From Deltaproteobacteria bacterium (GTDB taxonomy: Bacteria > Desulfobacterota > Binatia > UBA1149 > CAITLU01): DNA of 64,000 bases. This document shows positions 15,554-45,267 of the stretch, in pieces. Location of the stretch: positions 6,389 to 70,388 of the forward strand of contig JACRCR010000140.1 of the NCBI GenBank assembly GCA_016218925.1, in the 5' to 3' direction. Position 1 is the first letter of the stretch, and each line of letters opens with the position of its first letter. The notes below the pieces were generated by a model. The model ran no database searches, was not told the origin of the DNA, and worked only from the letters and a program-made list of their open reading frames with translations. The translations under genes were made by a program, and so were the position numbers.

Positions 15554-15602
15554 CGACGACCGCGACCGCTCGCTTCGGCGAGAATTGCGCACAGGAGAGA
15601 GA

Positions 15603-16391: not shown

Positions 16392-16496
16392 GAACGGACC
16401 GGCGCTGAGGCTCGAGACACGACGGCGCGCGTGAGGACGCGTGCCAGGCAATGACATCGCGCGGATCCAAGGACTGCGCTGCGGGAGATCGAAGCT

Positions 16497-17729
16497 ATGA
16501 AACAGAACGCAATCGTCGCCGGCGTCGGCATGACCCATTTCGGCAAACACCTGGACATCGGTCTCAAAGCGATCGGCGCCGAAGCCGTCCAGGCCGCCGT
16601 CAAGGATGCCGGGATCTCGTTGGACGATATTCAGGCTGCCTACGTCGGCAACGCCGCGGCGGGGCTCGTGACCGGGCAGGAGTGCATCCGCGGCCAGGTG
16701 ATCCTGCGCTCGATCGGTCTCGGTCGCGTTCCGGTGGTCAACGTCGAGAACGCCTGTGCCAGCGGATCGACGGCCTTCCATCAGGCCGCGGCGATGGTCA
16801 CGGCCGGAGCCTACGACGTAGTGCTCGCACTCGGCGCCGAGAAGCTCTACAGCGAAGACCGCAAGAAGAGCTTCAGCGCGTTCTCGGGCGCAGTCGATGT
16901 CGAACTGATGCAGGCCATCATGGAGAGCTTGCAGCAGAGCGCCGCAAAAGGTGGAGCCAGTGCCGGCGCGTCGGGCGCCGGCGAGAAGCGCTCGATGTTC
17001 ATGGACATTTACGCGATGGCGGCGCGCTCGCACATGGAGCGATACGGCACCACCGCCGAGCAGTTCGCGATGGTCTCGGCCAAGAACTCGCTGCACGGCA
17101 GCATGAACCCGCGCGCGCAGTTCCGCGAAGAACTGACCGTCGAGCAGGTACTGGCCTCACCGGTGATCGCCGAGCCGCTCACGCGTCCGATGTGTTCGCC
17201 GATCGGCGACGGCGCGGCCGCGGTCATTCTGGTCAGCGAGCGCAAGGCGCGCGAGCTGGGGATCAGCAAGCCGGTGCGCGTGGTTTCCACGATCCTGCGC
17301 TCGGGCTGGGACCACGGGATGGACGAGGATGGCTGCGGCGATGTGTGCTCGCGCGAAGCCTACGAGGACGCCGGGGTCGGCGCCGCCGACATCAACGTGA
17401 TCGAACTGCACGACGCTTCAGCGCCGGGCGAGATCTTCGCGTACGAGTATCTCGGGCTGTGTCCCAAGGGCGAAGGCGGCAGACTGGTCGAGTCGGGGGC
17501 AACGCGTCTTGGCGGGCGCCAGCCGGTCAATACTTCGGGCGGCCTGCTGCGCAAGGGACATCCGGTCGGCGCCACCGGCGCCGCGCAGATCGTCGAACTG
17601 ACCGAGCAGCTTCAGGGGCGCTCGGGTGCGCGGCAGGTAGCCGGTGCGCGTATCGGTCTGGCCCAGAACGGCGGCGGCAACATAGGTACCGACGTCGCGG
17701 CGATGTGCGTTTCGGTCCTGCGGATCTGA
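16497..17729 (+). CDS. Thiolase, SCP2/lipid-transfer type
   Basis: 'NVENACASG' (catalytic Cys), 'ELHDA' (HDA type), 'GHPVGATG', 'CSPIGDGAAA'. Confidence 0.92.
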   Translation: MKQNAIVAGVGMTHFGKHLDIGLKAIGAEAVQAAVKDAGISLDDIQAAYVGNAAAGLVTGQECIRGQVILRSIGLGRVPVVNVENACASGSTAFHQAAAMVTAGAYDVVLALGAEKLYSEDRKKSFSAFSGAVDVELMQAIMESLQQSAAKGGASAGASGAGEKRSMFMDIYAMAARSHMERYGTTAEQFAMVSAKNSLHGSMNPRAQFREELTVEQVLASPVIAEPLTRPMCSPIGDGAAAVILVSERKARELGISKPVRVVSTILRSGWDHGMDEDGCGDVCSREAYEDAGVGAADINVIELHDASAPGEIFAYEYLGLCPKGEGGRLVESGATRLGGRQPVNTSGGLLRKGHPVGATGAAQIVELTEQLQGRSGARQVAGARIGLAQNGGGNIGTDVAAMCVSVLRI

Positions 17730-17750
17730 GGCGAGGGCAGGAGTAGGCGG

Positions 17751-19373
17751 ATGCGCGAACCGAGCCTCTTCATCCTGGCCGACATCGTACGCGAGAAGGC
17801 CAAAGCCCAGCCGGATCACGAGGTGCTGACCTTCGAGCACCTCAGTCTCGATGACGAGGCGACGCCGGACGAGGTGCGTACCTACGCTCAGTTGTCGCAA
17901 GGCGCCGATCGCATCGCGGCCGCATTGGTCGCCTACGGCATGCAACGCGGCGATCGGTTCGGGCTGATGATGCGCAACCATCCCGAGTACGTCGAGACGA
18001 TGGTGGCGGCATCGATCACCGGCACGGTGATGGTCCCTCTCGACCCGCGTACCCGCGGCGACAAACTGGCGTTCATGCTGAGCAACGCCGGCTGCCGCGG
18101 CATGGTGTGCGCCGACTACTGCCTGGGCGAAGTCGTCGCGATCCGCGAGCGGTGCCCGGATCTTCGCTGGGTACTGGCGCTGGAAACCGGTGAGGGAGTG
18201 GCGGCCACGACGGTGTCGGCCACTCGCGGCGCCGACTCGATGCGCGGGGTACTGGCAAGGCCGGCTGCGCCGATGGAAGTGAGGCTCGAGGCGAGCACCG
18301 ACCCGCTGCAGATCATCTACACCTCGGGCACCACCGGCGATCCCAAAGGCGTGGTCTTTTCCAACGATCGTTTCGGCTCGATGGCGATGCTCGGCATGAT
18401 CGCGGGTTACACCAGTGAGGAGAGACCGTACACCGGCTTGTCGCTCACCCACGGCAACGCGCAGGCGGTCACGTTGGCGCCGACGCTGGTGATGGGACTG
18501 CACGCGGTGTTCAGCCGCAAGTTCACCAAGTCGCGTCTGTGGGACGTGTGCCGCCGCCACGGCTGCACGGTGTTCTCGCTGCTCGGCGGCATGGCCACCG
18601 CCATCTACAGCGAGCCGGGAAGGCCCGACGACGGCGACAACCCGGTGCGTTTCGTCACCAGCGCCGGCATGCCGGCCGGCATCTGGGAGCCGTTCGAGAA
18701 GCGCTTCAACGTCAAGATCATGGAGTGGTACGCGGCCGTGGAAGGGGGCCTTGCATTCAACCCGATCGGCAAGGGGCCGATCGGATCGTTCGGCAAGCCG
18801 GCCCCCGGCATGGAGATGAAGATCCTCGACGAGAACGACAACGAGTGTCCGCCCGGAGTAATGGGCGAGATCTGCTCGCGCCCGGCCGGCGCCAAGGCCA
18901 GCGTCGACTACTACGGCAACGAGAAGGCTTCCAAGGACAAGACCCGCGGCGGCTGGCTGCGCAGCGGCGACATCGGCCACACCGACGACGAAGGCTGGTT
19001 CTACTTCGACTTCCGCAGCGGCGGGGGCATCCGTCACAACGGCGATTTCGTCCATTCCGGCTTCGTGGAGCGGGCCATCGCCGAGCACCCCTCGGTCAGT
19101 GATGTCTTCGTCTACGGTGTCGCTGCCGCTTCGGGAGCGCCGGGAGAGAAGGACGTGGTCGCGGCGGTGGTGCCGGCCAACCGCGCGAGTTTCGACCCGG
19201 CGGCGCTGTTCGCGGCGTGCCGCAAGTCGCTCGAATCCAACTTTGTTCCCTCCTATCTTCAGGTGGTGGACGAGATTCCGAAGACGGCTTCCGAGAAGCC
19301 CCAGGAGCGGTTCCTGCTCGACGCGTTCGATCCCGGGGCGCCGAACGTCTTTACGGAGCGGACTTCGGCTTGA
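17751..19373 (+). CDS. AMP-binding acyl-CoA ligase (CaiC-like)
   Basis: YTSGTTGDPKG, WYAAVEG, GWLRSGDIG, IPKTASEK. Confidence 0.9.
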   Translation: MREPSLFILADIVREKAKAQPDHEVLTFEHLSLDDEATPDEVRTYAQLSQGADRIAAALVAYGMQRGDRFGLMMRNHPEYVETMVAASITGTVMVPLDPRTRGDKLAFMLSNAGCRGMVCADYCLGEVVAIRERCPDLRWVLALETGEGVAATTVSATRGADSMRGVLARPAAPMEVRLEASTDPLQIIYTSGTTGDPKGVVFSNDRFGSMAMLGMIAGYTSEERPYTGLSLTHGNAQAVTLAPTLVMGLHAVFSRKFTKSRLWDVCRRHGCTVFSLLGGMATAIYSEPGRPDDGDNPVRFVTSAGMPAGIWEPFEKRFNVKIMEWYAAVEGGLAFNPIGKGPIGSFGKPAPGMEMKILDENDNECPPGVMGEICSRPAGAKASVDYYGNEKASKDKTRGGWLRSGDIGHTDDEGWFYFDFRSGGGIRHNGDFVHSGFVERAIAEHPSVSDVFVYGVAAASGAPGEKDVVAAVVPANRASFDPAALFAACRKSLESNFVPSYLQVVDEIPKTASEKPQERFLLDAFDPGAPNVFTERTSA

Positions 19374-20038
19374 GTCGCAGCGGCGCCAGCGCACGCGTAG
19401 CGCCCGCCGACGGTGGCGGGCACGCCGGACTCGGCAAGCGCCAGCGCAACGTGATCCGCAACCGCCAGTCCATCTTGTCGGCGGCTCGCGAGGTATTCAG
19501 CGAACTCGGCTACGGTGCCGCGACCATCCGTGACATAGTGCGGCGCACCGATCTGGCGGCCGGGACGTTCTACAACTACTTTCCAGACAAAGAGTCGGTA
19601 CTGCGTGAAATCCTGGAAGATTTTACCGGACGAGTGCGGCAGCGGGCGCACGAGGCACGGATGGAGGCGCGCACGCTCGAAGAGCTGATGCGCTCGTCGT
19701 TCCTGACCTGCTTTCGCCTCTACGCCGAGGAGAAGACGCTGGTTGCGATGATGGCGCGCAACGCCGGCGAGGTTCCGTTGATGACCTCCGGGACGATCCT
19801 GCAGCCGGCCATCGCCGAGTTGATCGCCGACCTCCGTGCCAAAGAGCGCGAGGGCGTCGTTCCCCGTCTCGACATCGAACGCACCGCCCGCGTGGCGGTG
19901 GCGCTGGCGAGCGAACTTGGCCTTCACATGCTGTCGCGCAAGCCGCTGGACATCGAAGGGACCACCGAGTTCGCCGCCCGCTTCATGCTTGGCGGCATTA
20001 TCGGAGTGGCTGGCGCGCCGCTGGCCAAAGGGGCTTAG
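19370..20038 (+). CDS. TetR/AcrR family transcriptional regulator
   Basis: 'ILSAAREVFSELGYGAATIRDIVRRTDLAAGTFYNYFPDKE' HTH; probable TTG start overlapping the upstream TGA. Confidence 0.92.
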   Translation: MSRSGASARVAPADGGGHAGLGKRQRNVIRNRQSILSAAREVFSELGYGAATIRDIVRRTDLAAGTFYNYFPDKESVLREILEDFTGRVRQRAHEARMEARTLEELMRSSFLTCFRLYAEEKTLVAMMARNAGEVPLMTSGTILQPAIAELIADLRAKEREGVVPRLDIERTARVAVALASELGLHMLSRKPLDIEGTTEFAARFMLGGIIGVAGAPLAKGA

Positions 20039-20244
20039 GCGTCCCGGCGACGCGCCGCGGCAAAGCCGGCCGCTGTGCACAGCCAAAAAAATTTCAAAAC
20101 TCCCCCCTCGATCTATAGCGCAGGGTTTCAACAAGATGGTAAGTATCTGGCGCGGCGCAGGGCTACGTTCGCGTGAATGGGTGGGATTCTGGTCATCTGT
20201 AGGCCCTCGACTGCCTCTCAGCACATCCAAAGGAGGAGTTACGA

Positions 20245-21327
20245 ATGACCATCCGATTCGCTAGGAAGAGCATCGCTCTTTTTTCGTCCCTTGCCGTCCT
20301 TGGCATGGCCTCGCAGGCCATGGCGAGCACGCTGAATCAGAACGTGTCGTGGACCATCGACCGCGCCGGCACTACGACCAAGTATCGCGTCGCGGCCTAC
20401 GGCGACTCGATCTACGCCGGCTACAACGGTTCGACTCTCAGCGCCGCCAAGTACCAGGCGACCACCATCGACTCCGAGTACCTCGCGGCCAAGTGGAACG
20501 CGGACATCGAGAACATCCGTCGCTGCAAGTCGGGCGCGGTGGCGTCGGACATCTACAACAACAAGATCGTAGCCGAGCGGTCGTACATGCAGGCGACCAG
20601 CACCCGCGTGGTCACCTTCGAGATGTGCGGCAACGACGGCTTGCAGGCTCGCAGCAACCTCAAAGGCCAGAGCGGCACCTGTAACTTCGGGGTGCTCGAC
20701 ACGGCACTCAACAACTGCACGACGTATCAGAGCGCCGCGATGGCCTACATCAACGCGAACGCGTCGGCCAACGTGAAGCTCAAGGTGATCGCCAACCTGT
20801 ACTACCCCGGCTACAACGCAGACAACGTGCTGAGCACCTGCACGGTGGGCGGCGTGAAGGTGAACCTGCGCGACAAGTTCCTCCCCTACATCGCCAAGAT
20901 GAACTGGAGGGCCTGCAACTTCGCCAACACCTACGGCTTCAAGTGCGTCGACAACTTCGCCGAGTACATGGGCGCCGACTACGACAGCAACGGCGACGGC
21001 CTGGTCGATTCGGAAGCGCTCAAGTACGTGCAGGGAGAGTCGGAAGCGGCCTACGTCACGCGCATCACGGTGACGCTGAAGTCGACGATCCGCGACGCGA
21101 ACACTCACTTCGCGACGTCCTCCACCAGCTACGACTACATCCAGTCGGACGACACCCACCCCACCTACACGGGCGGGACCGTGACCGCCGGTCTGTTCGG
21201 CGGCACCACGGGCAGCGGCGCGGCTCGCTACACGTCGTTCACCGGCGGCAAGAACCCGATCTGGAACCAGCTCGGACACGAGCGCATGGGATGGGCGCTG
21301 TCGACCTGGAACCCGACCGCTCCGTAA
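20245..21327 (+). CDS. Secreted SGNH/GDSL hydrolase
   Basis: Signal peptide ending AMA; blocks GDS, (S)GA, GND and DDTHP; Dx[DN]xDG loop 'DSNGDG'; strong RBS AAAGGAGG. Confidence 0.85.
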   Translation: MTIRFARKSIALFSSLAVLGMASQAMASTLNQNVSWTIDRAGTTTKYRVAAYGDSIYAGYNGSTLSAAKYQATTIDSEYLAAKWNADIENIRRCKSGAVASDIYNNKIVAERSYMQATSTRVVTFEMCGNDGLQARSNLKGQSGTCNFGVLDTALNNCTTYQSAAMAYINANASANVKLKVIANLYYPGYNADNVLSTCTVGGVKVNLRDKFLPYIAKMNWRACNFANTYGFKCVDNFAEYMGADYDSNGDGLVDSEALKYVQGESEAAYVTRITVTLKSTIRDANTHFATSSTSYDYIQSDDTHPTYTGGTVTAGLFGGTTGSGAARYTSFTGGKNPIWNQLGHERMGWALSTWNPTAP

Positions 21328-34357: not shown

Positions 34358-34548
34358 GAAGGTCTTCCCTGCACAACCAGTGCGAGCCGGCGGCCAGGAC
34401 TGTGACGGATGCGCATTGTCGAGTCGCGAGTGGGGCGACGCAAACTGTCTGCGCCGCACGCGGATGCGGCGGCGAGTCATGCGGCTCAGAGACGAAGGGT
34501 GACGCCCCCGGCTTGCGGCACGTGTGCGCGAGCACTAAACCTCCGGCG

Positions 34549-35439
34549 ATGACGCTCTCGGCTTCTGCGGTCTCACCGCGCGGCGCCGCCTTTCGCGCCG
34601 ACGTCGTCGCGCTTGCGCCGGCGTGGCGAATCGCCGCTGCGGCCCTCAAAGTCTTCGCGCGTGGCAGCCTGTTGGTGATGGTGGTGGCGCTGCTGCTCTC
34701 GGACGAGCCGCCGACCAACCCGCTGGCGCAGATGCGGATGTTCGCGGGGTTGTTTCTCGCGCCCGAGGCCGCGGCCTGGTGCATTGCGCGCGCGTTCGCT
34801 GCGAGTCTCAGCGTGGAGGACGAAGCCCTCGTGCTCGAGCAAAGGGGGCGGCGCGTCGAGATCCAGACGGCGGCGGTCGCGGCAGTGGAGCCATGGGTGG
34901 TCCCGCTTCCCGCAGTCGGCCTTTGGCTGAGGTTGAAGTCGGGAAGGCGTTTCTCGGAGGCGATCGCGCTGGCCGATCCGGCGGGCTTCGTCGAGGCGTT
35001 GGTCGCCCAAGGCGGTCAGCCCTCGCTCGGCGATGCGCTGTCAGGCCGCGTGGGGGCCTACGCGCGGGCGCGAGTTGCCAATCCCCACGGGCTCTTCGAG
35101 CACCCGGTTCTCAAGTTCGTGGTCTTCGCGCTGGTTCCGGCGCTGCCGGCGTTCCGCCTGCACCAGGTCATCACGTACGGTGGAACTTTCGGCGAGTACC
35201 AGACGTTCGGTCTCCAGGCCTATCTCATCGGTCTTGCGATCTGGTGGGTCTCGTGGGCGATCGGTCTCGTGCTGTTCGCGGCAGTGCTGAGGGCGGCCGT
35301 CGAGTTGGGCACCGTGGCGCTGGTGTTGGCGCGCCCGGCGTGGGCGGTTGGTGCGAGGAAGTTGCTGGAGATCGTTGGCCGCGTGTTCTTTTACGTCGGC
35401 GTCCCGACCTTGCTGCTGATCCGCCTGTGGCCGTGGTGA
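34549..35439 (+). CDS. Hypothetical membrane protein; probable stand-alone C-terminal module of long Lnt-like proteins
   Basis: Several TMs; 'LKFVVFALVPALPAFRLHQVITYGGTFGEY' recalled, unverified, as the C-terminal extension of long Lnt homologues. Confidence 0.55.
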   Translation: MTLSASAVSPRGAAFRADVVALAPAWRIAAAALKVFARGSLLVMVVALLLSDEPPTNPLAQMRMFAGLFLAPEAAAWCIARAFAASLSVEDEALVLEQRGRRVEIQTAAVAAVEPWVVPLPAVGLWLRLKSGRRFSEAIALADPAGFVEALVAQGGQPSLGDALSGRVGAYARARVANPHGLFEHPVLKFVVFALVPALPAFRLHQVITYGGTFGEYQTFGLQAYLIGLAIWWVSWAIGLVLFAAVLRAAVELGTVALVLARPAWAVGARKLLEIVGRVFFYVGVPTLLLIRLWPW

Positions 35440-35510
35440 GCCGGCGGTTTGGTACGGCGCCGTCTGCCTGACGTCGTCGCGACGACCACTGCTGCGCCAG
35501 CGCGCTACGC

Positions 35511-36854
35511 TCAATAAAGCCCCGGAATGATCTTTGCCGGCACGCGCCGGCAGTACTCGTCCCAGTCGGCGCCGTACTTGTTGCGACAGCGTTTGTCGTC
35601 GCGCGTGGCGCGATCGGCGAGCAGCAGGATCAGGAAGGTCAGGTAGAAGTACGGCACGAAGTGTTCGAAGCCGGCCGGAATGCTCCAGGCCAGCGCGAGC
35701 GCGATCTCCGGCACGTAGTGGAAGTGGCGCGCCAGTCCCCACCAGCCCGAGGCCAGCAGAAGGCTCTCGTGCTCGCTTGCGTCGGCGGTGGTGTAGCGCG
35801 CGTGGATCAGGTCCGGAGCGCGCCCCCAGACCGTCGTGTTGCCGCCGGTCTCGCGCACGCGCTGGCGCTGCTCATCGGCGGCATAGTTCACGTAGATCGC
35901 GGCCAGGCCGACCACGAAGATGGCTGCCGCAAGCGCCGCCGGCATGTCGTAGGGGCGCAGCACGAGGTACTGCGCGGTCAGTGCGTACACCGCTGGCACC
36001 CAGGCGAGCACGCCCCAGCAGATGTAGTAGCCGAAGCGGTCGTGCATGATGTCGAGTGAGGTGAAGTACCCGCTCTCCCACCAGAAGAACTTCAGCAGAT
36101 ACACGACGGTGATCGCCACCGACACCAGCATCGAATTGCTCACGTGCCCGAACAGCTCGCCCTGCTTGGCCGCGAACGAGCACACGATGATGCTCCATCC
36201 CATCATGCTGATGCGGCAGTTGATGAGCTGCTTGAGGTTGATGCCGAAAAGCTCGGGGTGCAGCTCGACGCCCCAGTAGTAGTCCCAGATGAAATTGCCC
36301 GAGACGCTACGATCTTCGCAGGTCGGCCACACCCGCCCCTTCACGTAGAGAAGCAGACACAGCACCAGCGCGAACACGACGAGGGTGATCAGCATCGGCC
36401 CGAACCGGTCCCACACGACTCCCGCACTGAAGAGCCCCAGACCGTAGGAACAACCGAAGAACAGACCATGGGTGACGAGCCAGGCGGCGATGCCGTTGAG
36501 CTTGTAGCGCGGGCGATTGCCGGACGGCGTGATCGGGCCGAAAAAGTCCTTTCCGGGAAGCCACTGCAACAAGGCGGTCTCGAGCACGACAAAGACCAGG
36601 ATCATCTCTGCGGCGGCCAGGCTCGGCGACGGGAAGTGCGCGGCGACCGAGCGCCAGCCCTTCGCCGTGAGCAGCGGCAACAGCGAGCCGTCAAAGGGCT
36701 CGAAGGTGCAGACGATCCAGAACAGGATCGCGGCGGGCGGGGTCGACAGGATCAGCAACAGCGGGCCGAGGCGCGAGCGGATCAGATCGACCCACGCACC
36801 GTCGCTGCCGGCCGCCCAGGTCGTGAGCTTCTGCGCTGGCGACTCATTCGACAT
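35511..36854 (-). CDS. Sterol Delta7-reductase (7-dehydrocholesterol reductase, ERG4/ERG24 family)
   Basis: 'YKLNG', 'DYYWGVELHP', 'YFTSLDIMHDRFGYYICWG', signature 'LLASGWWGLARHFHY', 'RDDKRCRNKYG..W..YC..VP..IIPGLY'. Confidence 0.93.
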   Translation of the reverse strand: MSNESPAQKLTTWAAGSDGAWVDLIRSRLGPLLLILSTPPAAILFWIVCTFEPFDGSLLPLLTAKGWRSVAAHFPSPSLAAAEMILVFVVLETALLQWLPGKDFFGPITPSGNRPRYKLNGIAAWLVTHGLFFGCSYGLGLFSAGVVWDRFGPMLITLVVFALVLCLLLYVKGRVWPTCEDRSVSGNFIWDYYWGVELHPELFGINLKQLINCRISMMGWSIIVCSFAAKQGELFGHVSNSMLVSVAITVVYLLKFFWWESGYFTSLDIMHDRFGYYICWGVLAWVPAVYALTAQYLVLRPYDMPAALAAAIFVVGLAAIYVNYAADEQRQRVRETGGNTTVWGRAPDLIHARYTTADASEHESLLLASGWWGLARHFHYVPEIALALAWSIPAGFEHFVPYFYLTFLILLLADRATRDDKRCRNKYGADWDEYCRRVPAKIIPGLY

Positions 36855-36932
36855 CTGGATCCCCGCGGCGCCGCACTCTCGCGTGCGGGGGCGCGTGGGT
36901 CAACAGCTGCGCGGTCACCAGGCGCCGGTCGT

Positions 36933-36946
36933 ATGATTTTTGTCAT
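36933..36946. promoter_or_regulatory. Crp/Fnr-type palindrome ATGAT-TTTT-GTCAT (site 1)
   Basis: In the divergent promoter between the sterol reductase and the oxidase operon; the 21-mer 36928-36948 matches 42659-42679 at 17/21 positions. Confidence 0.7.
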
Positions 36947-37036
36947 GGCCGGGTGCGCGCATCTGGTGTCTTGATGCCCACTGGGCGACCCCGGTCACCG
37001 CTTCGGTGTCCGGAAGGGCTGGTCCGGGAGGTATCG

Positions 37037-37198
37037 ATGGCCACGACGCACGACCCACAGCGGCAGATTCCGCTCGGACAGAGGCTCTACGACCGGCCTT
37101 TTCTGCTGCTCGGCTTCGGCCTCGTGGTGATGTTCGCGTTCTACACGATCTGGGGACTGCTCGAACTGATGTGGCTGCCGGTGGCCACGCTGCCGTAA
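37037..37198 (+). CDS. Small single-TM protein, probable accessory subunit (IIa-like) of the heme-copper enzyme
   Basis: 53 aa, RBS GGAGG, one hydrophobic helix, first gene before subunit II. Confidence 0.7.
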   Translation: MATTHDPQRQIPLGQRLYDRPFLLLGFGLVVMFAFYTIWGLLELMWLPVATLP

Positions 37199-37210
37199 CG
37201 GGGGAGGGAG

Positions 37211-37798
37211 ATGGAAGAACTGCACAGTGCACTGGTGGCGCCCCGCGGCATCTGGTGGAAGGCGGCCGGCCGCCAGGAGAGGATCTGGGTCACCGTCTCG
37301 TTCGTGTGGTGCATGATCCTGTTCGCGATGATGCCGCTATGGCACATCAAGGGCGGCCAGAATCCGTCCGGGATCCGAGCCAGGGTCGAGCCCGAGGCGT
37401 TTCGGCGCCGCGTCGATCAGTTCATCGCCGACTACAAGATCGGGTCGGAAGCGGGGGTTCCGTTGGTCGCGCCGCCACCCGGTTCCGACGTCTATCTGCT
37501 CGCGCGCATGTGGCAGTGGTATCCGGCGCTGGTGCTGGAAGAGGGCAAGACCTACGTGCTGCATCTCTCCTCCATCGACGTCAATCACGGGTTCAACCTG
37601 CAACCCTTCAACGTGAACTTCCAGGTGGTGCCCGGCTATGACTACGGGCTGCGCATCACGCCCAACCAGGCCGGGGACTATCGCGTGATCTGCAACGAGT
37701 ACTGCGGGATCGGGCATCACCTGATGACTGGCAAGATCCTCGTGAAGCCGGCCGGTAGCGCGGCCGTCGCGCCGGTCGCCCAAGGGGGTACGCGATGA
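37211..37798 (+). CDS. Heme-copper oxidase subunit II with CuA site (B-family/eNOR type)
   Basis: One TM, cupredoxin domain 'SSIDVNHGF' and 'CNEYCGIGHHLM'. Confidence 0.93.
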   Translation: MEELHSALVAPRGIWWKAAGRQERIWVTVSFVWCMILFAMMPLWHIKGGQNPSGIRARVEPEAFRRRVDQFIADYKIGSEAGVPLVAPPPGSDVYLLARMWQWYPALVLEEGKTYVLHLSSIDVNHGFNLQPFNVNFQVVPGYDYGLRITPNQAGDYRVICNEYCGIGHHLMTGKILVKPAGSAAVAPVAQGGTR

Positions 37799-39522
37799 GC
37801 GCCGCCGCAGCCGTCGCCGCCGTGTTTCGCCGCTGCCCGGTTACCGGTCTGAAGATCGATCGGCACGCCGAGAACCTGATCAAGGTCAACGCCGTAATCT
37901 CGATCGTCACGCTGCTGGTCGGAGTGATCGCGGCGATCGGTCTGGTGCTCACCCGCTGGCAGGCCGTGCACCTGCTGCCGGTGGACTGGTTCTACCGGCT
38001 GCTGACCGCGCACGGCCTGAACATGCTGATCTTCTTCATTCTCTACTTCGAGATGGCGGTGCTGTACTTCGCCGGACCGGTCATGCTCGGGTGCCGCGTT
38101 CCGACGCCGAGGCTGGCCTGGGGCTCGTTCGCGCTGATGCTGGCCGGAACGCTGATCGTCGAAGTGATGGTGTTCTCGGGCAAGGCCGACGTGCTGTTCA
38201 CGTCGTACCCGCCGCTCAAGGCCGATCCTTGGTACTATCTCGGCATCATCCTGTTCGCGGTCGGCGCGCTGATCGTCACCGCGATCTTCATGGCCACGCT
38301 GGTGGTGGCCAAGCGCGAGCACACCTACGAAGGTTCGGTTCCGCTGGTCACCTTCGGTGCGCTGACCGCGGCGATCATCGCGATCATCACGCTGCTGCAC
38401 GGCGCGGCGATCTACATCCCGGCGCTGGCGTGGTCACTGGGGATCATCACGCTCGATCCCGAAGTCTACCGGCTGCTGTTCTGGGGTCTCGGCCATTCGT
38501 CGCAGCAGATCAACGTCGCCGCGCAGGTTTCGATCTGGTACCTCCTTGGCGGTCTCACCGTCGGCGCGGTGGTGGTCAACGAGAAGATCAGCCGCACCGC
38601 CTTCGTGCTCTACGTCGGGTTCATTTCGATGGCATCGGCACACCACCTGCTGGTCGATCCTGGCATGGGGCCGGCGTGGAAAGTGTGGAACACCAGCTAC
38701 GCGATGTATCTGGCGGTACTGGCCAGCATGGTGCACGGTTTTACCGTGCCGGCCGGGATCGAGACCGGGCTGAGACTGCGCGGCTTCGTCAACGGAACCT
38801 TCGAATGGCTGCGCAAGGCACCGTGGAGCGATCCTGGATTCGCCGGCCTGATGCTGTCGCTGGTGATCTTCGGATTCATCGGCGGCATCACCGGCGTGAC
38901 GATGGGGACCGAACAGATCAACATCCTGGCCCACAATACGCTGCGCGTCCCCGGTCACTTCCACGCGACCGTCGTCGGTGGCACCGCGCTGTCGTTCATG
39001 GCGGTGACCTACTACCTGATCCCGCTCATCTTCCGCAAGAAAGTCGCGCTGTGGAAGCTGGCCAGGATCCAGCCGTATCTGTTCGGGATCGGCATCACGA
39101 TCTTCTCGATCTCGATGACGTTCGCCGGGATCTTCGGAGTGCCGCGACGCCACTGGGACATTTCGTTCGCGCAGGCGCCGTTCAAGTACGAGTTTCCGCC
39201 GGCAGTCGACCTGATGCTGGCGCTGACCGCGATCGGCGGATTGATGGCTGCCGCGGCGGTGCTGATCTTCATCGCCAGCGCGGTGATCTCGGTGTTCTTC
39301 GGCGAGAGCCTGGATCTTGCCGCACTGACGCCCGGGATGGCGGGCGTGCCGCAGGGACTGACCAAGCTGCCGCCCCAGCAGTACGAGTCGGAGACGGTCG
39401 CCAAGGTTCACGGCGCCGGAACGCCGGGCACGGTGGTGCTGGTGGCGGTCTTCCTGCTGGTCTTCGTGATGTACTACTACACCAACTGGAAGATGCTTTC
39501 GGTGGTGTGGAAGATCGGTTGA
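37795..39522 (+). CDS. Heme-copper oxidase subunit I, probable eNOR-type nitric oxide reductase
   Basis: Six His ligands (TAHG, GHSSQQ, AHH, GHFH); the His+4 cross-link Tyr of O2 reductases is Gln (HSSQQ at 38494-38508). Confidence 0.85.
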   Translation: MSAAAAVAAVFRRCPVTGLKIDRHAENLIKVNAVISIVTLLVGVIAAIGLVLTRWQAVHLLPVDWFYRLLTAHGLNMLIFFILYFEMAVLYFAGPVMLGCRVPTPRLAWGSFALMLAGTLIVEVMVFSGKADVLFTSYPPLKADPWYYLGIILFAVGALIVTAIFMATLVVAKREHTYEGSVPLVTFGALTAAIIAIITLLHGAAIYIPALAWSLGIITLDPEVYRLLFWGLGHSSQQINVAAQVSIWYLLGGLTVGAVVVNEKISRTAFVLYVGFISMASAHHLLVDPGMGPAWKVWNTSYAMYLAVLASMVHGFTVPAGIETGLRLRGFVNGTFEWLRKAPWSDPGFAGLMLSLVIFGFIGGITGVTMGTEQINILAHNTLRVPGHFHATVVGGTALSFMAVTYYLIPLIFRKKVALWKLARIQPYLFGIGITIFSISMTFAGIFGVPRRHWDISFAQAPFKYEFPPAVDLMLALTAIGGLMAAAAVLIFIASAVISVFFGESLDLAALTPGMAGVPQGLTKLPPQQYESETVAKVHGAGTPGTVVLVAVFLLVFVMYYYTNWKMLSVVWKIG

Positions 39523-39523
39523 G

Positions 39524-40459
39524 ATGTCCACGATGATCGCCGAGATGCCGCTGCGCGGTGACCGCGTGCCGGAAGCAGCCGCTACCGCGGTCGCGATGAT
39601 GACCTGCTGGACGCTGGTGACGGCGGCATGGTGGGCGCTTGCGCTGGCGCAGGTGTCCGACCCGCCTCCGTGGCTGGCGGTGGCCAGATCGGTGTGTTTC
39701 GGCTCGACGCCGAGCGGGCTGCCCGATACCTACGGATGGGTGGTGCTGGTGTGCGGCCCTGCGTCGATGCTCGGCGGGATTCTGGCGGTCTGGGGCCACG
39801 AACTCGTTGCACGGGTGCGGGCTGCGTGGACAGAGCCGCTCGGTCGCGTGCTGCTGGCGGCGGCGGCGGCGGCGGCGCTGTCTGGAATCGGCTGGGCGGC
39901 GGTTCGCATCCATAGCGGATTGCAGATCGTTGCGGCCGACTACGCGCCGCTCGAGGAGGGGCCGCTTCCAGCGACTCATCCGCGGCTCGACAAGGCGGTG
40001 CCGGCCTTCGACCTCGTCGACCAGAACGGGCGCGCATTCACCGATGCGGATCTGCGCGGGCGAGTCACGCTGCTGACCTTCGCGTTCGCCCACTGCCGCA
40101 CCGTCTGCCCGGTCATTCTCGAAGGTCTGCGGCGTGCTGCGGCGGCGGCACACGACCCGCGCATGCAGGCGGTGGTGATCACCCTGGATCCGTGGCGCGA
40201 CACCCCGAGCCGGCTGGCGCAGATGAAGAACGAGTGGGCGCTGCCGGTGGAGACCCACCTGCTCTCCGGCGAGGTCGGCGCGGTGACGCGCGCGCTCGAC
40301 GCCTTCGGGGTTGCCTGGAAGCGCAACGATAACGACGGCGACGTCGTCCACGCGCCGCTGGTCTACGTGGTCGGAGGCGACGGGCTGATCGCGTACGGGT
40401 TCAACAACCCGGCGCCCAACTGGCTGGTCGACGCGACGATGCGGACGGCGGCTCGGTGA
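39524..40459 (+). CDS. SCO family copper chaperone with N-terminal membrane domain
   Basis: CxxxC 'HCRTVCP', 'ITLDPWRDTP', conserved His 'VVHAPLVY'; three N-terminal TMs. Confidence 0.88.
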   Translation: MSTMIAEMPLRGDRVPEAAATAVAMMTCWTLVTAAWWALALAQVSDPPPWLAVARSVCFGSTPSGLPDTYGWVVLVCGPASMLGGILAVWGHELVARVRAAWTEPLGRVLLAAAAAAALSGIGWAAVRIHSGLQIVAADYAPLEEGPLPATHPRLDKAVPAFDLVDQNGRAFTDADLRGRVTLLTFAFAHCRTVCPVILEGLRRAAAAAHDPRMQAVVITLDPWRDTPSRLAQMKNEWALPVETHLLSGEVGAVTRALDAFGVAWKRNDNDGDVVHAPLVYVVGGDGLIAYGFNNPAPNWLVDATMRTAAR

Positions 40460-40472: not shown

Positions 40473-40985
40473 CTACTTCACGACAAAATCGGTGTCATCG
40501 CCTTCGAGAGAAACGATGCGGATGCGGCCCTCGTCGAAGGCGATCCGTCCGTCGAACGCGTAGGTGGGCAGCGGTTTGTCGCTGGCCGCGACCGAGGTCT
40601 CCGGGGCGAATCGCACCGCGACATCGTGATCGCCAGGCGTGACCGCGATCGTGGAACTGTGCGTGATCGGCCGATCGCCGTGAATTCCGGCCGGGCGGCA
40701 ACGCTCGTCGGCCACCTCCACCTCGTCAATTTTCACCTGTAGTCGGTAAGCGACCGGTGTCATCTCGCACGCCGTCGGGCGGCGCATGTGCTGGGGCAGG
40801 CCGGCCAGTTCGTCTTCAGACAGCGTGCGGCAGACCTGCGCGCGACCTGCCGAAGTGCGCAGCGCCAGTTGCAGCAACGAGCCCCGCGTAGGGTCGGAGC
40901 CCTCCATGTGCAGCACCGTGAGCGTTGCAGCCCCGAGCAGCAGTCCGCCCAGCACGCGTCCCGCGCCGACCGCGATCTCAGCCAC
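40473..40985 (-). CDS. Hypothetical membrane-anchored protein coupled to the cytochrome b fusion
   Basis: N-terminal TM; 'VCRTLSEDEL..LPQHMRRPTAC' then a beta-rich domain; GTG overlaps the upstream stop by 8 nt. Confidence 0.65.
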   Translation of the reverse strand: MAEIAVGAGRVLGGLLLGAATLTVLHMEGSDPTRGSLLQLALRTSAGRAQVCRTLSEDELAGLPQHMRRPTACEMTPVAYRLQVKIDEVEVADERCRPAGIHGDRPITHSSTIAVTPGDHDVAVRFAPETSVAASDKPLPTYAFDGRIAFDEGRIRIVSLEGDDTDFVVK

Positions 40986-42594
40986 GACTTGCCACCTGCT
41001 TCGGTTCGCACTGCGTGCCCACCTGCAAGTCGCCGGCTGGCAGGCCCGGCCCGAGCGCGGCCAGGCGTGCGCGGAAACTCTCGATCTCGGCCTCGAGGCT
41101 GCGCCACTCGCCGCGCGAAGCGGCGTGGATCGCCACGCGCCTCTTGTCGACGCGCGCCGGCAACTCCGCCTCGCGGTCGTTGTAGACGCGCTCGTACAGC
41201 CACTTGGGGCCTTCGCGGCACGGCGCGCTGCGCGGCGGGCACGCAGCTATGAAGACGCCGCCGCTACCGGCGCGCAGCAGCATTTCGATCACGGAAGTAT
41301 GAAGGTTCCCTGCGCACTCTACCGTCATGACGCTGGCACCGGGCAGCGAGGTCAGCCGGGGATCGTCGTGCAGCGGGTTGTGGCGGCAGGCCAGCAGCGT
41401 GAACCCGTCGGCGCGAACGCCGTGCTTCTCGATCAGGTCCTGCGTGCGACGCAGTTGGATGCGTCCGGTGTGCGCTGGTGGTCCTATTCCCATCGGCGCG
41501 CACGAGCCCGCGCAGATGCCGCACGCTACACAGCGCGCCGGGTTCACCCACGAGTAGAACTGCGAGCGGCGACCCGGATCGGGTCGCTCGAGCATCGAGA
41601 TCGCGTCGAAGGGGCAGTCCTTGTAGCAAGTCGTGCAGCCGGTGCACACTTCCGGGTCGGACCACGAGGGCTGCGCCCGTGCGCGTTTGTTCTTCCACCA
41701 CCAAGGCACCGAACACATCAGCGCGGCCGCAGACAGCCACGACGCCAGGTGCACCGCAGGGGAGACCTGCCAGGCCAGCGGCAGCCAGAAGTTGTAGAGC
41801 AGGTCGATCGGAACGTTGCGCGGGATCACCAGCAAGTCGGCGCGCTGGCCGAGCGGGACGCGCAGCACCAGCGCGAGCACCGACAGCACGCCGACCACGC
41901 CGATCGCGAGCGCGCGCGGCGGCGCCAGATGCGGCCGCGCGAGGTTGGCAAGGTGCAGCCACAGCGCCGCGGCCAGTCCCAGCGGCAGACACACGTGCAA
42001 GAACAGGTTCATGAAGAAGAACGACGCCGGCACCGGAGCCAGCCCGGCGAAGGCCCTTCCGATCGGCACCGAGAACAACGGCAGCAGGTCGACGATTTTG
42101 GTGAGTTCGACCGCCACCACCTGGCCCTGCAGGTCCCACGCCATCACCTGACCGGTCCAGCCGCACGCCAGCGTCGCTCCGACCAGCACAGCCCCGCTGA
42201 TCCACGCGCGCGTTCGCGGGCCATGGAAGCGTCCGGCCAGGAACATCTTGAGCGCGTGCAGCAGCGCGGCCGCCATCGCCAGGTCCGCGGCGTAGGTGTG
42301 CAGGGCGCGCACCCAGCTTCCCAGCGGGATATCGGTGTCGATGCGGGCCACCGACTGGTAGGGGTGCTCGATGCTGTAGAACAGGAACAGGAAGATGCCG
42401 GTGGTGATCAGGACCAGGAACGCGACGATCGCCAGCGTGCCGCTCTGGTGCAGCGGGTTGAAGTTCGAGGAGTAGAAACGATCGAAGAGTTCGTCGAGCC
42501 TGGTCACCGCGCTGTCGATCACCGCGACCGTGCGCGACCACGTCGCCGGCCTGGAGTTGGGCAAGTCTGCCGGTTGTGTGGCTGGGCCGCTCAA
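40978..42594 (-). CDS. Cytochrome b(N) + 2x[4Fe-4S] ferredoxin + MvhD/FlpD-like fusion protein
   Basis: Cyt b helices with 'RALHTY...LLHALKMF' and 'MNLFLHV'; CTGCTTCYKDCP and CVACGICAGSC; MvhD-like 'VECAG...GVFIAACP...CREG'. TTG start at 42594 with GGAGG RBS. Confidence 0.85.
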   Translation of the reverse strand: MSGPATQPADLPNSRPATWSRTVAVIDSAVTRLDELFDRFYSSNFNPLHQSGTLAIVAFLVLITTGIFLFLFYSIEHPYQSVARIDTDIPLGSWVRALHTYAADLAMAAALLHALKMFLAGRFHGPRTRAWISGAVLVGATLACGWTGQVMAWDLQGQVVAVELTKIVDLLPLFSVPIGRAFAGLAPVPASFFFMNLFLHVCLPLGLAAALWLHLANLARPHLAPPRALAIGVVGVLSVLALVLRVPLGQRADLLVIPRNVPIDLLYNFWLPLAWQVSPAVHLASWLSAAALMCSVPWWWKNKRARAQPSWSDPEVCTGCTTCYKDCPFDAISMLERPDPGRRSQFYSWVNPARCVACGICAGSCAPMGIGPPAHTGRIQLRRTQDLIEKHGVRADGFTLLACRHNPLHDDPRLTSLPGASVMTVECAGNLHTSVIEMLLRAGSGGVFIAACPPRSAPCREGPKWLYERVYNDREAELPARVDKRRVAIHAASRGEWRSLEAEIESFRARLAALGPGLPAGDLQVGTQCEPKQVASRG

Positions 42595-42663
42595 GGGGAC
42601 CTCCGCGACGCGGCGCCGCGGTTCTTCGTATCGATCAGGTAGCGCAATCGGCGTCGTCGTCGT

Positions 42664-42677
42664 ATGACGGATGTCAT
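42664..42677. promoter_or_regulatory. Crp/Fnr-type perfect palindrome ATGAC-GGAT-GTCAT (site 2)
   Basis: In the divergent promoter between the cytochrome b fusion and DUF2249; same flanks (GTCGT...GG) as site 1. Confidence 0.72.
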
Positions 42678-42735
42678 GGGCCCGGCGCGGCTCATTTCGT
42701 AGGTTCGATAATCGTTGCGACCGAGCGGATCCGAC

Positions 42736-43023
42736 ATGATCTACCAACCCGACGACGAGCGAGTGCGCTTCTGGCAGGACTCGACCGACCCGATGCGATC
42801 TCATCTCGACGTTCGCGAACTGCTCGAGGACGGCGGCGAACCCTACGCGATCATCATGGAGTGCGTGAACAGGCTGCAAGGCGGCGAGTGCGTGGTGCTG
42901 CATGCGATCATGCAGCCGCGCCCGTTGCTGGCCCAACTGGGTAGGATGGGTTTCGCCTGCGACGTGCGCCACGTTGGCGCCGATCACTGGGAAGTCGACA
43001 TCAGCGCAAGGGCGCAGGCCTGA
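42736..43023 (+). CDS. DUF2249 domain protein
   Basis: 'LDVRELLEDGGEPYAIIMECVNRLQGGECVVLHAIMQPRPLLAQLGRMGF...HWEV' fits the DUF2249/TusA-like pattern. Confidence 0.75.
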   Translation: MIYQPDDERVRFWQDSTDPMRSHLDVRELLEDGGEPYAIIMECVNRLQGGECVVLHAIMQPRPLLAQLGRMGFACDVRHVGADHWEVDISARAQA

Positions 43024-43040
43024 CGGCCCGCGCGGCCGGT

Positions 43041-44501
43041 TCAGGCCTGCGCCCCGGCGCGCGTGGTTCCGTTTCGCAGGCGGCTGTGGCGCACGCCGTA
43101 GGCGCTGTAGATCACCAGACCGATCATCAGCCACACGAGCAACCTCAGCCAGTTGGCCCAGCCGAGCGAGAACATCAGCAGCAGATTGGCGCCGATCCCG
43201 AGCAGCGGCACCGCCGGCACCAGCGGCGTGCGGAACGGCCGCCGCACTTCGGGTCGCGTGCGGCGCATGATCAGCACGGCTGCGCACACGATCACGAACG
43301 CGAACAACGTTCCGATGTTGACCAGCTCCGAGAGCACCTTGAGGGGAAACAGCGCGGCCACTGTCGCGACGAACGCGCCGGTCAGGACGGTCGACAGATA
43401 CGGAGTGCGAAATCGCGGGTGGATTGCGGCGAAGATCGCTGGCGGCAGCAATCCGTCGCGCGCCATCGCCAGCAGCACGCGGGCCTGGCTCAGCATCATG
43501 ACGAGCAACACGCTGGTGATGCCCGCCACCGCACCGAGCGAGATGATGAGCGTGGCGGTGCCCAGCCCGTAGCGGGCGAAAGCCTCGGCCAGCGGTGCGT
43601 CGATGTTGATCTGGGGCGTCGGGACCATGCCGGTCAGTACGCCCGCCACCGCGATATAGAGCAGGGTACAGACTCCGAGCGAGCCGAGCAGCGCCAGCGG
43701 CACGTCGCGTTCGGGATGGCGCGCCTCTTCGGCGTGGGTGCTGATCGAATCGAACCCGATGTAGGCGAAGAATACGTAGCCGGCGCCTCGCAGGGTGCCG
43801 CTCCAGCCCTGTGGAAAGAACGGCTGCCAGTTGGCCGGGTCGACGTGAGGGATGCCGGCAAGGATCACGAACATCTCGACGCCGAGCTTGAGTGCGACGA
43901 TCAGCACGTTGAGTCGCGAGCTCTCGCGAATTCCGATCACCAGCACGACCGTGAGCGCGACCACGATCGCGGCGGCGGGCAGGTCGAAGACGATCGGCAC
44001 GGAGCCGATGTGCCACGCCTCGGCCAGCACCTGCGGTGACGCGCTGAACGGATCGATCGACAGCGGCCCCGGCACGCGGATGCCGAACAGTCCCAGGAAG
44101 GATTGGAAGTAGTGCGACCAACCGTGCGCCACCGCGCACGAGGCCACCGCGTACTCGAGGACCAGATCCCAGCCGATGATCCACGCGAACAGTTCGCCGA
44201 GGGTGGCGTACGCGTAGGTGTAGGCACTGCCTGCCACCGGGATCATTGCGGCGAACTCCGCGTAGCACAGACCGGCCAGCGCGCAGCCGAGCCCCGAGAG
44301 CACGAACGAGAGCATCAGCGAGGGCCCGGCGTAGTCGCGGGCAGCCAGGCCGGTGAGTACGAAGATGCCGGCGCCTATGATCGCGCCGACTCCGAGCGCG
44401 GTCAGCGACACCGGACCCAGCACGCGGTGGAGGCGGTCGTGCGCCTGCAGCTCGGCATGGAGCAACTCGACGGACTTGCGGGCGAAGAGGGGGCTGGCCA
44501 A
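43041..44501 (-). CDS. APC-family amino acid permease (cationic amino acid transporter-like)
   Basis: 'LGVGAIIGAGIF', 'CYAEFAAMIPVAGSAY', 'FFAYIGFD', 'MARDGLLP'. Confidence 0.95.
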   Translation of the reverse strand: MASPLFARKSVELLHAELQAHDRLHRVLGPVSLTALGVGAIIGAGIFVLTGLAARDYAGPSLMLSFVLSGLGCALAGLCYAEFAAMIPVAGSAYTYAYATLGELFAWIIGWDLVLEYAVASCAVAHGWSHYFQSFLGLFGIRVPGPLSIDPFSASPQVLAEAWHIGSVPIVFDLPAAAIVVALTVVLVIGIRESSRLNVLIVALKLGVEMFVILAGIPHVDPANWQPFFPQGWSGTLRGAGYVFFAYIGFDSISTHAEEARHPERDVPLALLGSLGVCTLLYIAVAGVLTGMVPTPQINIDAPLAEAFARYGLGTATLIISLGAVAGITSVLLVMMLSQARVLLAMARDGLLPPAIFAAIHPRFRTPYLSTVLTGAFVATVAALFPLKVLSELVNIGTLFAFVIVCAAVLIMRRTRPEVRRPFRTPLVPAVPLLGIGANLLLMFSLGWANWLRLLVWLMIGLVIYSAYGVRHSRLRNGTTRAGAQA

Positions 44502-44574
44502 AGTGCGCGCAGTCTACACGCGGCCGCTCATCGCGCAACGTTGCAGTGCACACATGACAGCGGCCCGCACCCTC

Positions 44575-45267
44575 TCACGAGCCTCCTGCAAGCTGGGCCA
44601 TGGCGCGCCGATCGCGCACGCAAAGGCCGCGATCGTCCTGGCCGATCAGCCCGTCCTTCTGCCAGCGGCTCATGATGCGGATGACGGTCTCGATGCGTGC
44701 GCCGACCATGTCGGCGAGATCCTGACGGGTCAGCGGGATCGGCAGGTAGACCGGGCCGGGCTGGTCCGGCGACTTGGCACACAGGGCCTGCAGAACCCTG
44801 GCGATGCGGTACTCGACTCCGCCTCCGCCAAGATCCTCCATGCGTCGCTGCATCACGCGCATGCGCAGCGTCAGATCGCGGATCAGCGCGATGGCGGTTC
44901 CCTCGAAGCGCTCGAGGTAGGTGAAGTAGGCTTGGCGCGGCATCACCCATACGGTCGCGTCCTCGTGGGCGGAGGCCGAGGCCGGATAGCCGGTGCCGTC
45001 GATGACCGCGACCTCTCCGATGGCATCGCCGAAACGGAAGATGCCGAGAATCAACTCGCGCCCGCTCTCGAGCGAGCGAAAGACTTTCACCGCGCCGCTT
45101 TCGACCAGCCACAGATGCGAAGAATCCTCGCCCTCCAGGAACAGCATCGCGCCCTTGGCGTAGGAGCGCCGCGATAGCTGCTCGGCCAGCCAGGTGAGTG
45201 CCTGCTGCGACACGCCGCTGAAGCGCGGTATTCGGCTGATGGTGCCGATGGAGTCGGGGTCGATCAC
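44575..45267 (-). CDS. Crp/Fnr family regulator (no FNR Cys cluster; DNR/HcpR-like)
   Basis: cNMP-binding fold 'LFLEGE...GAVKV...GDAIGE', HTH 'LTRQDLADMVGARIETVIRIMSRW'. Confidence 0.92.
   Translation of the reverse strand: MIDPDSIGTISRIPRFSGVSQQALTWLAEQLSRRSYAKGAMLFLEGEDSSHLWLVESGAVKVFRSLESGRELILGIFRFGDAIGEVAVIDGTGYPASASAHEDATVWVMPRQAYFTYLERFEGTAIALIRDLTLRMRVMQRRMEDLGGGGVEYRIARVLQALCAKSPDQPGPVYLPIPLTRQDLADMVGARIETVIRIMSRWQKDGLIGQDDRGLCVRDRRAMAQLAGGS

Follow-up and report, generated by a model that had tools for sequence, protein, structure and literature searches.

What is a plant-like sterol reductase doing, on its own, in the genome of a bacterium of the Binatia? The question is raised by a stretch of 64,000 nucleotides from Deltaproteobacteria bacterium assembly GCA_016218925.1 (contig JACRCR010000140.1, positions 6,389 to 70,388), hereafter the window, in which a gene encoding a 447-residue protein of the ERG4/ERG24 family (hereafter the reductase) lies divergently adjacent to an operon resembling a nitric oxide (NO) reductase. 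It breaks down into three: which sterol double bond the enzyme would reduce, where its host would obtain the sterol, and whether the neighbouring operon has any bearing on it. In the reading that we prefer, with a probability of about 0.62, the gene encodes a functional integral-membrane enzyme of ten helices that reduces a sterol C=C bond with NADPH and belongs to the plant DWF5 branch within the Δ7 group (EC 1.3.1.21 type), it stands alone, and that it lies next to the NO-reductase-like operon is incidental. As an annotation this is ordinary, the reductase being a further member of a known family that implies no new mechanism. Bacterial sterol biology is under rapid revision, and whether the hosts of such enzymes make sterols of their own or edit sterols derived from eukaryotes matters for the interpretation of sterane and sterol biomarkers.

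The open reading frame (ORF) of the reductase is intact and carries both of the motifs that an earlier note on this DNA had quoted for it. Its product matches the Pfam profile PF01222 (ERG4_ERG24) with E=2.3e-77 and 261 bits (cut-off 27 bits) over residues 82-447, covering profile positions 71-432 of 432, and no NCBIfam model matches it. The GC-rich, neighbour-like codon usage described in the same note was also recovered: GC content at the three codon positions is 0.60/0.47/0.89, and third-position GC (GC3) in the neighbouring genes is 0.82-0.88. An independent public contig of 7.6 kb carries the reductase and the same neighbours at 100% identity, and the locus is therefore no assembly chimera. 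This contig, the neighbour-like GC3 and the presence of homologues in long bacterial contigs (up to 12.8 Mb) together rule out eukaryotic contamination or a chimeric contig as the source of the gene. A second 447-residue ORF in the window (59711-61054, minus strand), suspected of being a paralogue, encodes a glutamate dehydrogenase without similarity to the reductase. The gene is intact and stands alone, and from its sequence it encodes a well-conserved and apparently functional DWF5-type sterol reductase.

The best match to the reductase among solved structures is MaSR1 of Methylotuvimicrobium alcaliphilum (4QUV; E=4e-74, full length), and because 4QUV was deposited as a Δ14-sterol reductase, the Δ7 label proposed in the earlier note was worth testing. 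The comparison included DHCR7_HUMAN, TM7SF2/ERG24_HUMAN, ERG24_YEAST, ERG4_YEAST and ST7R_ARATH (DWF5), each verified by exact-sequence look-up, together with residues 7-427 of MaSR1 taken from the structure-search alignment. In BLASTP the reductase scores highest against DWF5 (389 bits, 46% identity, residues 32-447), followed by DHCR7 (266 bits, 36%), MaSR1 (259 bits, 35%), TM7SF2 (207 bits, 34%), ERG24 (142 bits, 26%) and ERG4 (116 bits, 27%). DWF5 is also the top-scoring reference for the bacterial relatives, sampled as every tenth of the best 120 matches.

Neighbour joining on 410 columns gave a tree of 114 sequences, rooted on ERG4 and bootstrapped 100 times, which takes in the reductase, the six references, 16 close homologues and, from an exhaustive HMMER search, representatives at 50% identity. 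The representatives surrounding the DWF5-type clade are almost all metagenome singletons. ERG24, TM7SF2 and MaSR1 fall in one clade and all Δ7-type sequences in another (80% bootstrap). A DWF5-type clade encompassing the reductase and Arabidopsis DWF5, and leaving out human DHCR7, has 97% bootstrap, and the core bacterial clade around the reductase 94%. The reductase lies outside the Δ14 clade, and it reads WWESGYFTSLDI and HYVPE at the motifs where Δ14 reductases have EEAVLTT.DI and NY.GD. The phylogeny that the earlier note had proposed as a check hence places the reductase apart from the C14-reductases and, together with the bit scores and the residue states described below, supports the DHCR7/DWF5-type Δ7 assignment made there. 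Judged by alignment and tree, the reductase groups with the Δ7 enzymes and not with Δ14 or Δ24(28) enzymes, and it is most likely an NADPH-dependent sterol Δ7-reductase, the Δ7 specificity being the part of this assignment that we infer.

Residue states were mapped from published work on the family. In MaSR1, NADPH is bound by N359 and R395, which correspond to N547 and R583 of LBR (PMC4951196). The pocket of yeast ERG24 (ScERG24) includes R339, H368, Y371, R406, D410, K417 and Y418, and the predicted catalytic pair is Y241/D363 in MaSR1, corresponding to Y257/D374 in ScERG24 (PMC12489058). In our alignment the reductase keeps the NADPH-pocket residues R334, H377, Y380, R415, D419, K426 and Y427, and also Y252, W220 and D268; the position of MaSR1 N359 and LBR N547 is occupied by His379, and a histidine is found there in DWF5 and ERG4 as well, both of them functional enzymes. 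Y252, the counterpart of the catalytic tyrosine, is a tyrosine in 110 of the 111 clade members aligned. The catalytic acid is replaced conservatively by Glu383, a change common to DWF5: position 383 is Glu in the reductase, in DWF5 and in 111/111 clade members, while DHCR7 and the references of the Δ14 and Δ24 types have Asp there. D268 is invariant across the 111 clade members and all six references. At position N212 both Δ7 references have Asn and the four Δ14/Δ24 references Glu, and the reductase has the DWF5-specific states N323, D327, R330, H379, E383 and L408, each of them present in at least 102 of the 111 clade members; these Δ7-type states were judged from six reference sequences and are indicative only.

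An AlphaFold2 model of the reductase, built on a 37-sequence clade alignment, reached a predicted local distance difference test score (pLDDT) of 89.4 and a predicted template-modelling score (pTM) of 0.88. A Foldseek search of this model against the PDB returned 4QUV_A as the sole significant match (E=1e-24, template-modelling scores 0.81/0.92, root-mean-square deviation 2.9 Å), and the modelled protein has the ten-helix integral-membrane fold of MaSR1. Following the mechanism of the family, NADPH would bind from the cytoplasmic side in a pocket of the C-terminal helices (R334, H377, H379, Y380, R415, D419, K426 and Y427), and a Δ5,7-sterol would enter laterally out of the bilayer. Tyr252, positioned by Glu383, would then protonate the double bond, and a hydride from the nicotinamide C4 would complete the Δ7 reduction to yield a Δ5-sterol.

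Mean column identity is 70% across the 111 clade members, with all pocket and catalytic residues kept, and conservation of this strength argues for purifying selection. The same result bears on the notion that the substrate of the protein is some lipid other than a sterol (for instance a different polycyclic or isoprenoid alkene), or that the protein is a relic under drift that now serves no role. The orphan context of the gene, with no sterol genes in view, would fit such a notion, but purifying selection speaks against a relic, all characterised members of the ERG4/ERG24 family are sterol reductases, and members of the clade are found within sterol clusters; we regard this explanation as very improbable.

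One of these clusters is that of the cyanobacterium Scytonema sp. PCC 10023, where a reductase 51% identical to the one studied here lies within a complete sterol cluster (locus L030, 4462-17548; the same as L067). The cluster comprises, in order, squalene epoxidase (SE), oxidosqualene cyclase (OSC), a Rieske/KshA_C protein, ERG2, the reductase, a second Rieske/KshA_C protein, EBP, a geranylgeranyl-reductase (GGR)-like protein, a 3beta-hydroxysteroid dehydrogenase (3beta-HSD)-like protein, an FAD protein and a P450, an order that agrees with the published sterol cluster of Calothrix (PMC10202945). It thus holds isomerases of both the ERG2 and the EBP type and a geranylgeranyl-reductase-like flavoprotein, but a single ERG4/ERG24 reductase. 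The Scytonema order recurs on a 2-kb metagenome contig (L075, 406-2008), on which an ERG2-type isomerase gene lies directly upstream of a 61%-identical reductase.

This cluster is also one ground for considering that the reductase, despite its Δ7-type ancestry, might reduce sterols at Δ14, or at both Δ14 and Δ7, filling the role of MaSR1 or ERG24 after 14-demethylation by CYP51. The P450 of the Scytonema cluster could be a CYP51, and with only one ERG4/ERG24 protein available, Δ14 may be what that enzyme reduces, in place of Δ7 or besides it. One reductase gene of Calothrix is likewise the best match for both C-14 and C-7 reductase queries, and the best solved structure is, as stated above, annotated as a Δ14 reductase. 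These observations have to be set against the position of the reductase outside the MaSR1/TM7SF2/ERG24 clade (80% and 97% bootstraps), its 389 bits to DWF5 against 259 to MaSR1, and its Δ7/DWF5 states at N212, N323, D327, R330, H379 and E383. Bacterial proteins of the MaSR1 type, moreover, form a group of their own (with P0291, P0296, P0299 and P0340), and the context described for Δ14-type bacterial genes, with CYP51 and OSC adjoining as in the 'CSG' clusters of PMC9531527, is missing here, no P450 or cyclase being present in the 64-kb window. A Δ14 or dual activity is, on balance, quite unlikely. The '8,14-Bsr' sterol reductase (PMC13277303) was considered as a further relevant relative and set aside, as it is an NTF2-family enzyme and belongs to a different family.

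Several other results, together with the single ERG4/ERG24 protein of the Scytonema cluster, weigh against reading the reductase as a Δ7 enzyme at work on sterols. A tblastn search of the window with ten Scytonema sterol-cluster proteins (E<1e-4), combined with Pfam scans of essentially all plausible ORFs, identified no homologue of squalene epoxidase, oxidosqualene cyclase, CYP51-type P450, SdmA-type Rieske protein, ERG2, EBP or 3beta-HSD; the first two of these had already been reported as missing, correctly, from the letters alone. No sterol pathway gene is present in the available flanks of ~45 close-relative loci, and no C5-desaturase that could make the Δ5,7 substrate was identified. A 2023 survey of OSC-containing bacteria has no Chloroflexi or Binatia among its entries. 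The tree used for placement is distance-based and not maximum likelihood, branching within its DWF5-type clade has less than 20% bootstrap, and the proposed Δ7 specificity is drawn from this phylogeny and from shared residue states. Finally, our search of the literature on the bacterial clade found no assayed member.

The missing sterol genes lead to the second question, the origin of the substrate. One possibility is that the same Δ7 chemistry is carried out on scavenged material: a host without oxidosqualene cyclase, having acquired the gene horizontally, would convert environmental Δ5,7-sterols (fungal ergosterol, 7-dehydrocholesterol) to Δ5-sterols. The orphan position of the reductase in the window and in the ~45 close-relative loci is consistent with this, as is the absence of Chloroflexi and Binatia from the 2023 list, and there is a precedent in the use of host sterols proposed for Coxiella and Legionella drancourtii (PMC2667531). 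Orphan status, however, cannot decide between synthesis and scavenging, since sterol genes are scattered in a proven producer, the cholesterol-making Enhygromyxa salina, whose 7-dehydrocholesterol-reductase homologue is separate from its C-14 reductase (PMC10202945). Sterol gene clusters have been predicted in sponge-associated metagenome-assembled genomes (MAGs) of Binatia (PMC9531527), more distant members of the clade are embedded in clusters for de novo synthesis, and no sterol uptake system was identified adjoining the reductase. Cultured members of myxobacterial families related to the Polyangiaceae produce cholesterol, alongside detectable 7-dehydrocholesterol (PMC12004948). Scavenging is a tentative alternative with a real, if minor, chance of being correct, and we slightly favour a late step of an own pathway, with the remaining genes elsewhere in the genome as in E. 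salina, over the remodelling of exogenous sterols.

Some Chloroflexota have no more than a small module of reductase, short-chain dehydrogenase/reductase (SDR) and EBP, which also speaks for scavenging, although the proximity of an SDR-EBP pair to the reductase counts for the preferred reading too. In two Chloroflexota/Anaerolineales MAGs, a pair of SDR and EBP/EXPERA genes is found downstream of the reductase, either immediately or at a distance of 9 kb (L011, 11381-12867; L013, 20191-21347, the same as L056). EBP/EXPERA is the sterol Δ8-Δ7 isomerase family, and the pair may form a minimal sterol-editing module with the reductase. Otherwise the gene is on its own within this clade, in surroundings that vary from locus to locus. 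Clustering of neighbouring ORFs across 36 genome loci revealed no conserved partner, the large clusters being shadow frames of the reductase itself, and the reductase is solitary in a 12.8-Mb myxobacterial chromosome and in a 130-kb Binatia contig. The 345-residue membrane protein encoded convergently with the reductase (Table 1) is the sole neighbour kept, and no further than the two closest relatives, L042 (63% identity) and L062 (60%); in L042 its orthologue lies downstream of an 85%-identical reductase.

The gene is widely distributed among bacteria. In 2009, plant-like Δ7 reductases were viewed as a curiosity of three amoeba-associated bacterial species (PMC2667531), and the statement of the earlier note that bacterial copies are sparse reflects that now outdated view. 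Among the candidates of a word-indexed protein search, 2,083 homologue clusters reached E<=1e-10, with identities to the reductase of 56-90% for the best 120, and an exhaustive search of 50%-identity representatives returned 3,269 family members at E<=1e-3. MAG loci with homologues span at least six phyla. In one-genome-per-species bacterial data, MAG homologues occur in an "uncultured Myxococcales" MAG (80% identity), in Candidatus Binatia (76-78%), in Chloroflexia and Anaerolineales (69-75%), in Polyangiaceae, Byssovorax and Polyangium (54-61%), in Scytonema (51%), and in Coxiellaceae, other Gammaproteobacteria and Verrucomicrobia (~48%). The window adds a well-conserved Binatia copy to a subfamily that is widespread among uncultured bacteria from soil and sediment, in several phyla, where it mostly stands alone.

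The housekeeping protein YchF encoded in the window provides a yardstick for these identities. Its closest named matches, in Binatia MAGs, are 72-77% identical, from which the host is probably a member of the Binatia. The reductase of the window is 69-80% identical to those of Binatia-like and Chloroflexota MAGs (L002-L018 and L031). The reductase is therefore about as alike across phyla as YchF is within the Binatia, which suggests a recent horizontal transfer of the single gene between phyla, and transfer of a self-sufficient gene would in turn suit the scavenging of sterols discussed above. A wider scenario, which we consider doubtful but worth stating, is that a DWF5-type Δ7-reductase passes by horizontal transfer between free-living bacteria of the soil (Binatia, Chloroflexota) which lack oxidosqualene cyclase, and remodels Δ5,7-sterols of fungi, algae or plants; in the present genome it might in addition be wired, through the spacer upstream of the gene, to a response to NO or microoxia. 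If true, this would amount to sterol modification without sterol synthesis, outside host-associated lifestyles. A related reading, suggested by the large bacterial radiation within the DWF5-type clade, is that plants could have acquired the enzyme from bacteria and not the other way round. The late "desaturation-modifying" enzymes, DHCR7 among them, are at present inferred to be eukaryotic in origin (PMC8237579).

The third question concerns the operon across the spacer, which the earlier note had labelled a NO-reductase operon. Against solved structures, its subunits I and II best match the Thermus ba3 (B-family) oxidase (1e-43 and 6e-19), and neither cNOR nor qNOR matches the operon subunits at 1e-5. 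The alignment of subunit I shows the CuB and heme histidines kept and Gln at the position of the cross-link Tyr237 (GHSSQQ against GHPIVY). Loss of the cross-link tyrosine from an enzyme that derives from the B family and has a CuA subunit is the criterion used to recognise eNOR, sNOR, gNOR and nNOR (Murali et al. 2024, PMC11214002). The replacement of Tyr237 by Gln and the presence of a CuA subunit agree with that definition and make the label reasonable, and the operon is plausibly a candidate B-family-derived NO reductase of the eNOR/sNOR-like kind.

The proximity of the two units had led to the proposal that a bidirectional, NO- or low-O2-responsive promoter region, acting through an element named 'site 1', is common to the reductase and the NO-reductase-like operon and couples sterol remodelling to NO or anoxia. 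In its favour, the two units diverge across just 182 bp, the spacer holds an AT-rich TGA-N6-TCA element, a Crp/Fnr-family regulator gene lies nearby (Table 1), and the operon resembles a tyrosine-less B-family-derived NO reductase. The spacer is indeed of the length given in the earlier note and contains a site-1-like element, ATGATTTTTGTCAT, the only FNR/Crp-like element in it; this element does not stand above chance. Site 1 (TGATTTTTGTCA) matches the FNR consensus TTGAT-N4-ATCAA at 7/10 positions. In the window, 121 sites reach that score, and the TGA-N6-TCA core of the element is present 12 times. The form TGAT-N4-GTCA was observed twice in the window against 1.0 expected. Among spacer 16-mers that recur in the window there are only GC-rich chance matches, the AT-rich box not being repeated, and the upstream regions of 20 orthologues hold no such box within 250 bp, with one core match at -288. 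A scan of 35300-37300 detected no sigma-70 promoter or terminator, and an Rfam scan of the window gave no match.

The comparison of loci is equally unfavourable to a functional link. The oxidase operon lies beside the reductase in none of 36 genome loci, 7 further contigs and 80 metagenome loci, including those of relatives at 79% and 85% identity, the latter judged on 396 bp of upstream sequence. The Crp/Fnr-family regulator has no N-terminal Cys cluster as FNR has, and it scores below every NCBIfam equivalog cut-off (best CRP and FixK). Since the tests of the site and of adjacency were negative, co-regulation, while possible in this one genome, has proximity as its only support; we consider it improbable, and the coupling of the two units through site 1 suggested in the earlier note is unsupported. 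Within the reading preferred here, the position of the reductase beside the operon is incidental.

Table 1. Features of the reductase locus and its surroundings, in positions of the window.
Feature	Position	Strand	Remarks
DWF5-type ERG4/ERG24 sterol reductase, coding sequence	35511..36854	(-)	ATG start, 447 aa, PF01222 match
Motif LDIMHDRFG (residues 267-275)	36030..36056	(-)	includes invariant D268; translation and alignment
Motif LLASGWWGLARHFHY (residues 366-380)	35715..35759	(-)	holds NADPH-pocket H377, H379, Y380; translation and alignment
Tyr252 codon	36099..36101	(-)	equivalent of predicted catalytic Tyr (MaSR1 Y241, ScERG24 Y257); alignment mapping
Glu383 codon	35706..35708	(-)	equivalent of predicted catalytic acid (MaSR1 D363, ScERG24 D374); alignment
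Arg415 codon	35610..35612	(-)	equivalent of NADPH-binding Arg (MaSR1 R395, LBR R583); alignment; invariant
Spacer between reductase and divergent small ORF (ATG 37037), 182 bp	36855..37036	(.)	
Imperfect inverted repeat with arms of 19 nt (79% complementary) and a 6-nt loop	36858..36901	(.)	directly upstream of reductase start, in the would-be 5' leader
Candidate Crp/FNR-type box ATGATTTTTGTCAT, presumed 'site 1'	36933..36946	(.)	centred ~85 bp upstream of reductase ATG and 97 bp upstream of small-ORF ATG
Divergent operon: 53-aa transmembrane ORF, CuA subunit II, tyrosine-less heme-copper oxidase subunit I, SCO1/SenC	37037..40459	(+)	context, not part of the feature
Convergent 345-aa multi-pass membrane protein	34402..35439	(+)	no Pfam/NCBIfam match; no shown functional link to reductase
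Crp/Fnr-family regulator	44575-45267	(-)	7.7 kb away

Further genes were recorded around the locus and its relatives. Convergent with the NO-reductase-like operon is an ORF of 1191 residues (40978-44553, minus strand), the C-terminal part of which (40978-42600) encodes cytochrome b, 4Fe-4S ferredoxin and FlpD-like (methyl-viologen-reducing hydrogenase delta) domains. Its upstream part overlaps an amino-acid permease gene in another frame (43041-44501), and its true start is therefore internal. A run of genes of the lipid-catabolism type at 3672-19373 includes two acyl-CoA dehydrogenases, two AMP-dependent ligases, a Thiolase_C_1 thiolase, a nitroreductase-family protein and a MacB-type efflux system, with no shown link to the reductase, and a sulfotransferase is encoded at 62431-63699. 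On the Binatia contig L039, a Gp49/HTH_3 (HigB/HigA-like) toxin-antitoxin pair follows the reductase (11940-12633), and genes for a wax-ester synthase/DGAT and a sulfotransferase lie 7-10 kb from it (18698-21223).

Among known systems, the reductase resembles MaSR1, the only solved bacterial structure of the family, in fold and cofactor pocket. MaSR1 differs in grouping with TM7SF2 and ERG24 and in its Δ14-type motifs EEAVLTTWDI and NYFGD, and the two proteins are 34-35% identical. With human DHCR7, the 7-dehydrocholesterol reductase affected in Smith-Lemli-Opitz syndrome, the reductase shares membership of the Δ7 group, Asn at N212, the catalytic Tyr and the NADPH-binding Arg, Lys and Tyr; DHCR7 belongs to another sub-branch and reads NYVGD (Asn, Asp) where the reductase and DWF5 read HYVPE (His, Glu). 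The sterol cluster of heterocystous cyanobacteria (Calothrix sp. NIES-4105, PMC10202945; Scytonema sp. PCC 10023) holds a 51%-identical member of the same group, set there amid SE, OSC, SdmA-like, ERG2, EBP, GGR-like, HSD-like and P450 genes, whereas the reductase is alone in the window.

The copies of Coxiella burnetii, Legionella drancourtii and Protochlamydia amoebophila (PMC2667531) are, like the reductase, DWF5-type orphan genes, and those bacteria have no full sterol pathway. Their hosts are intracellular or amoeba-associated. The lineages in which the reductase and its 55-90% relatives occur (Binatia, Chloroflexota, Myxococcota) are free-living ones of soil and sediment, and these proteins make up a well-supported subclade separate from those copies. 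Compared with Arabidopsis DWF5 (ST7R_ARATH), a Δ5,7-sterol Δ7-reductase, the reductase differs in its bacterial host, its intronless gene with host-like codons and no sterol pathway visible nearby, its unrelated N-terminal 30 residues, and Val in place of Cys at position 282, and its activity is predicted. The two nevertheless fall in a common clade (97% bootstrap) and both carry the signatures ARHFHYVPEI and FFWWE(A/S)GY.

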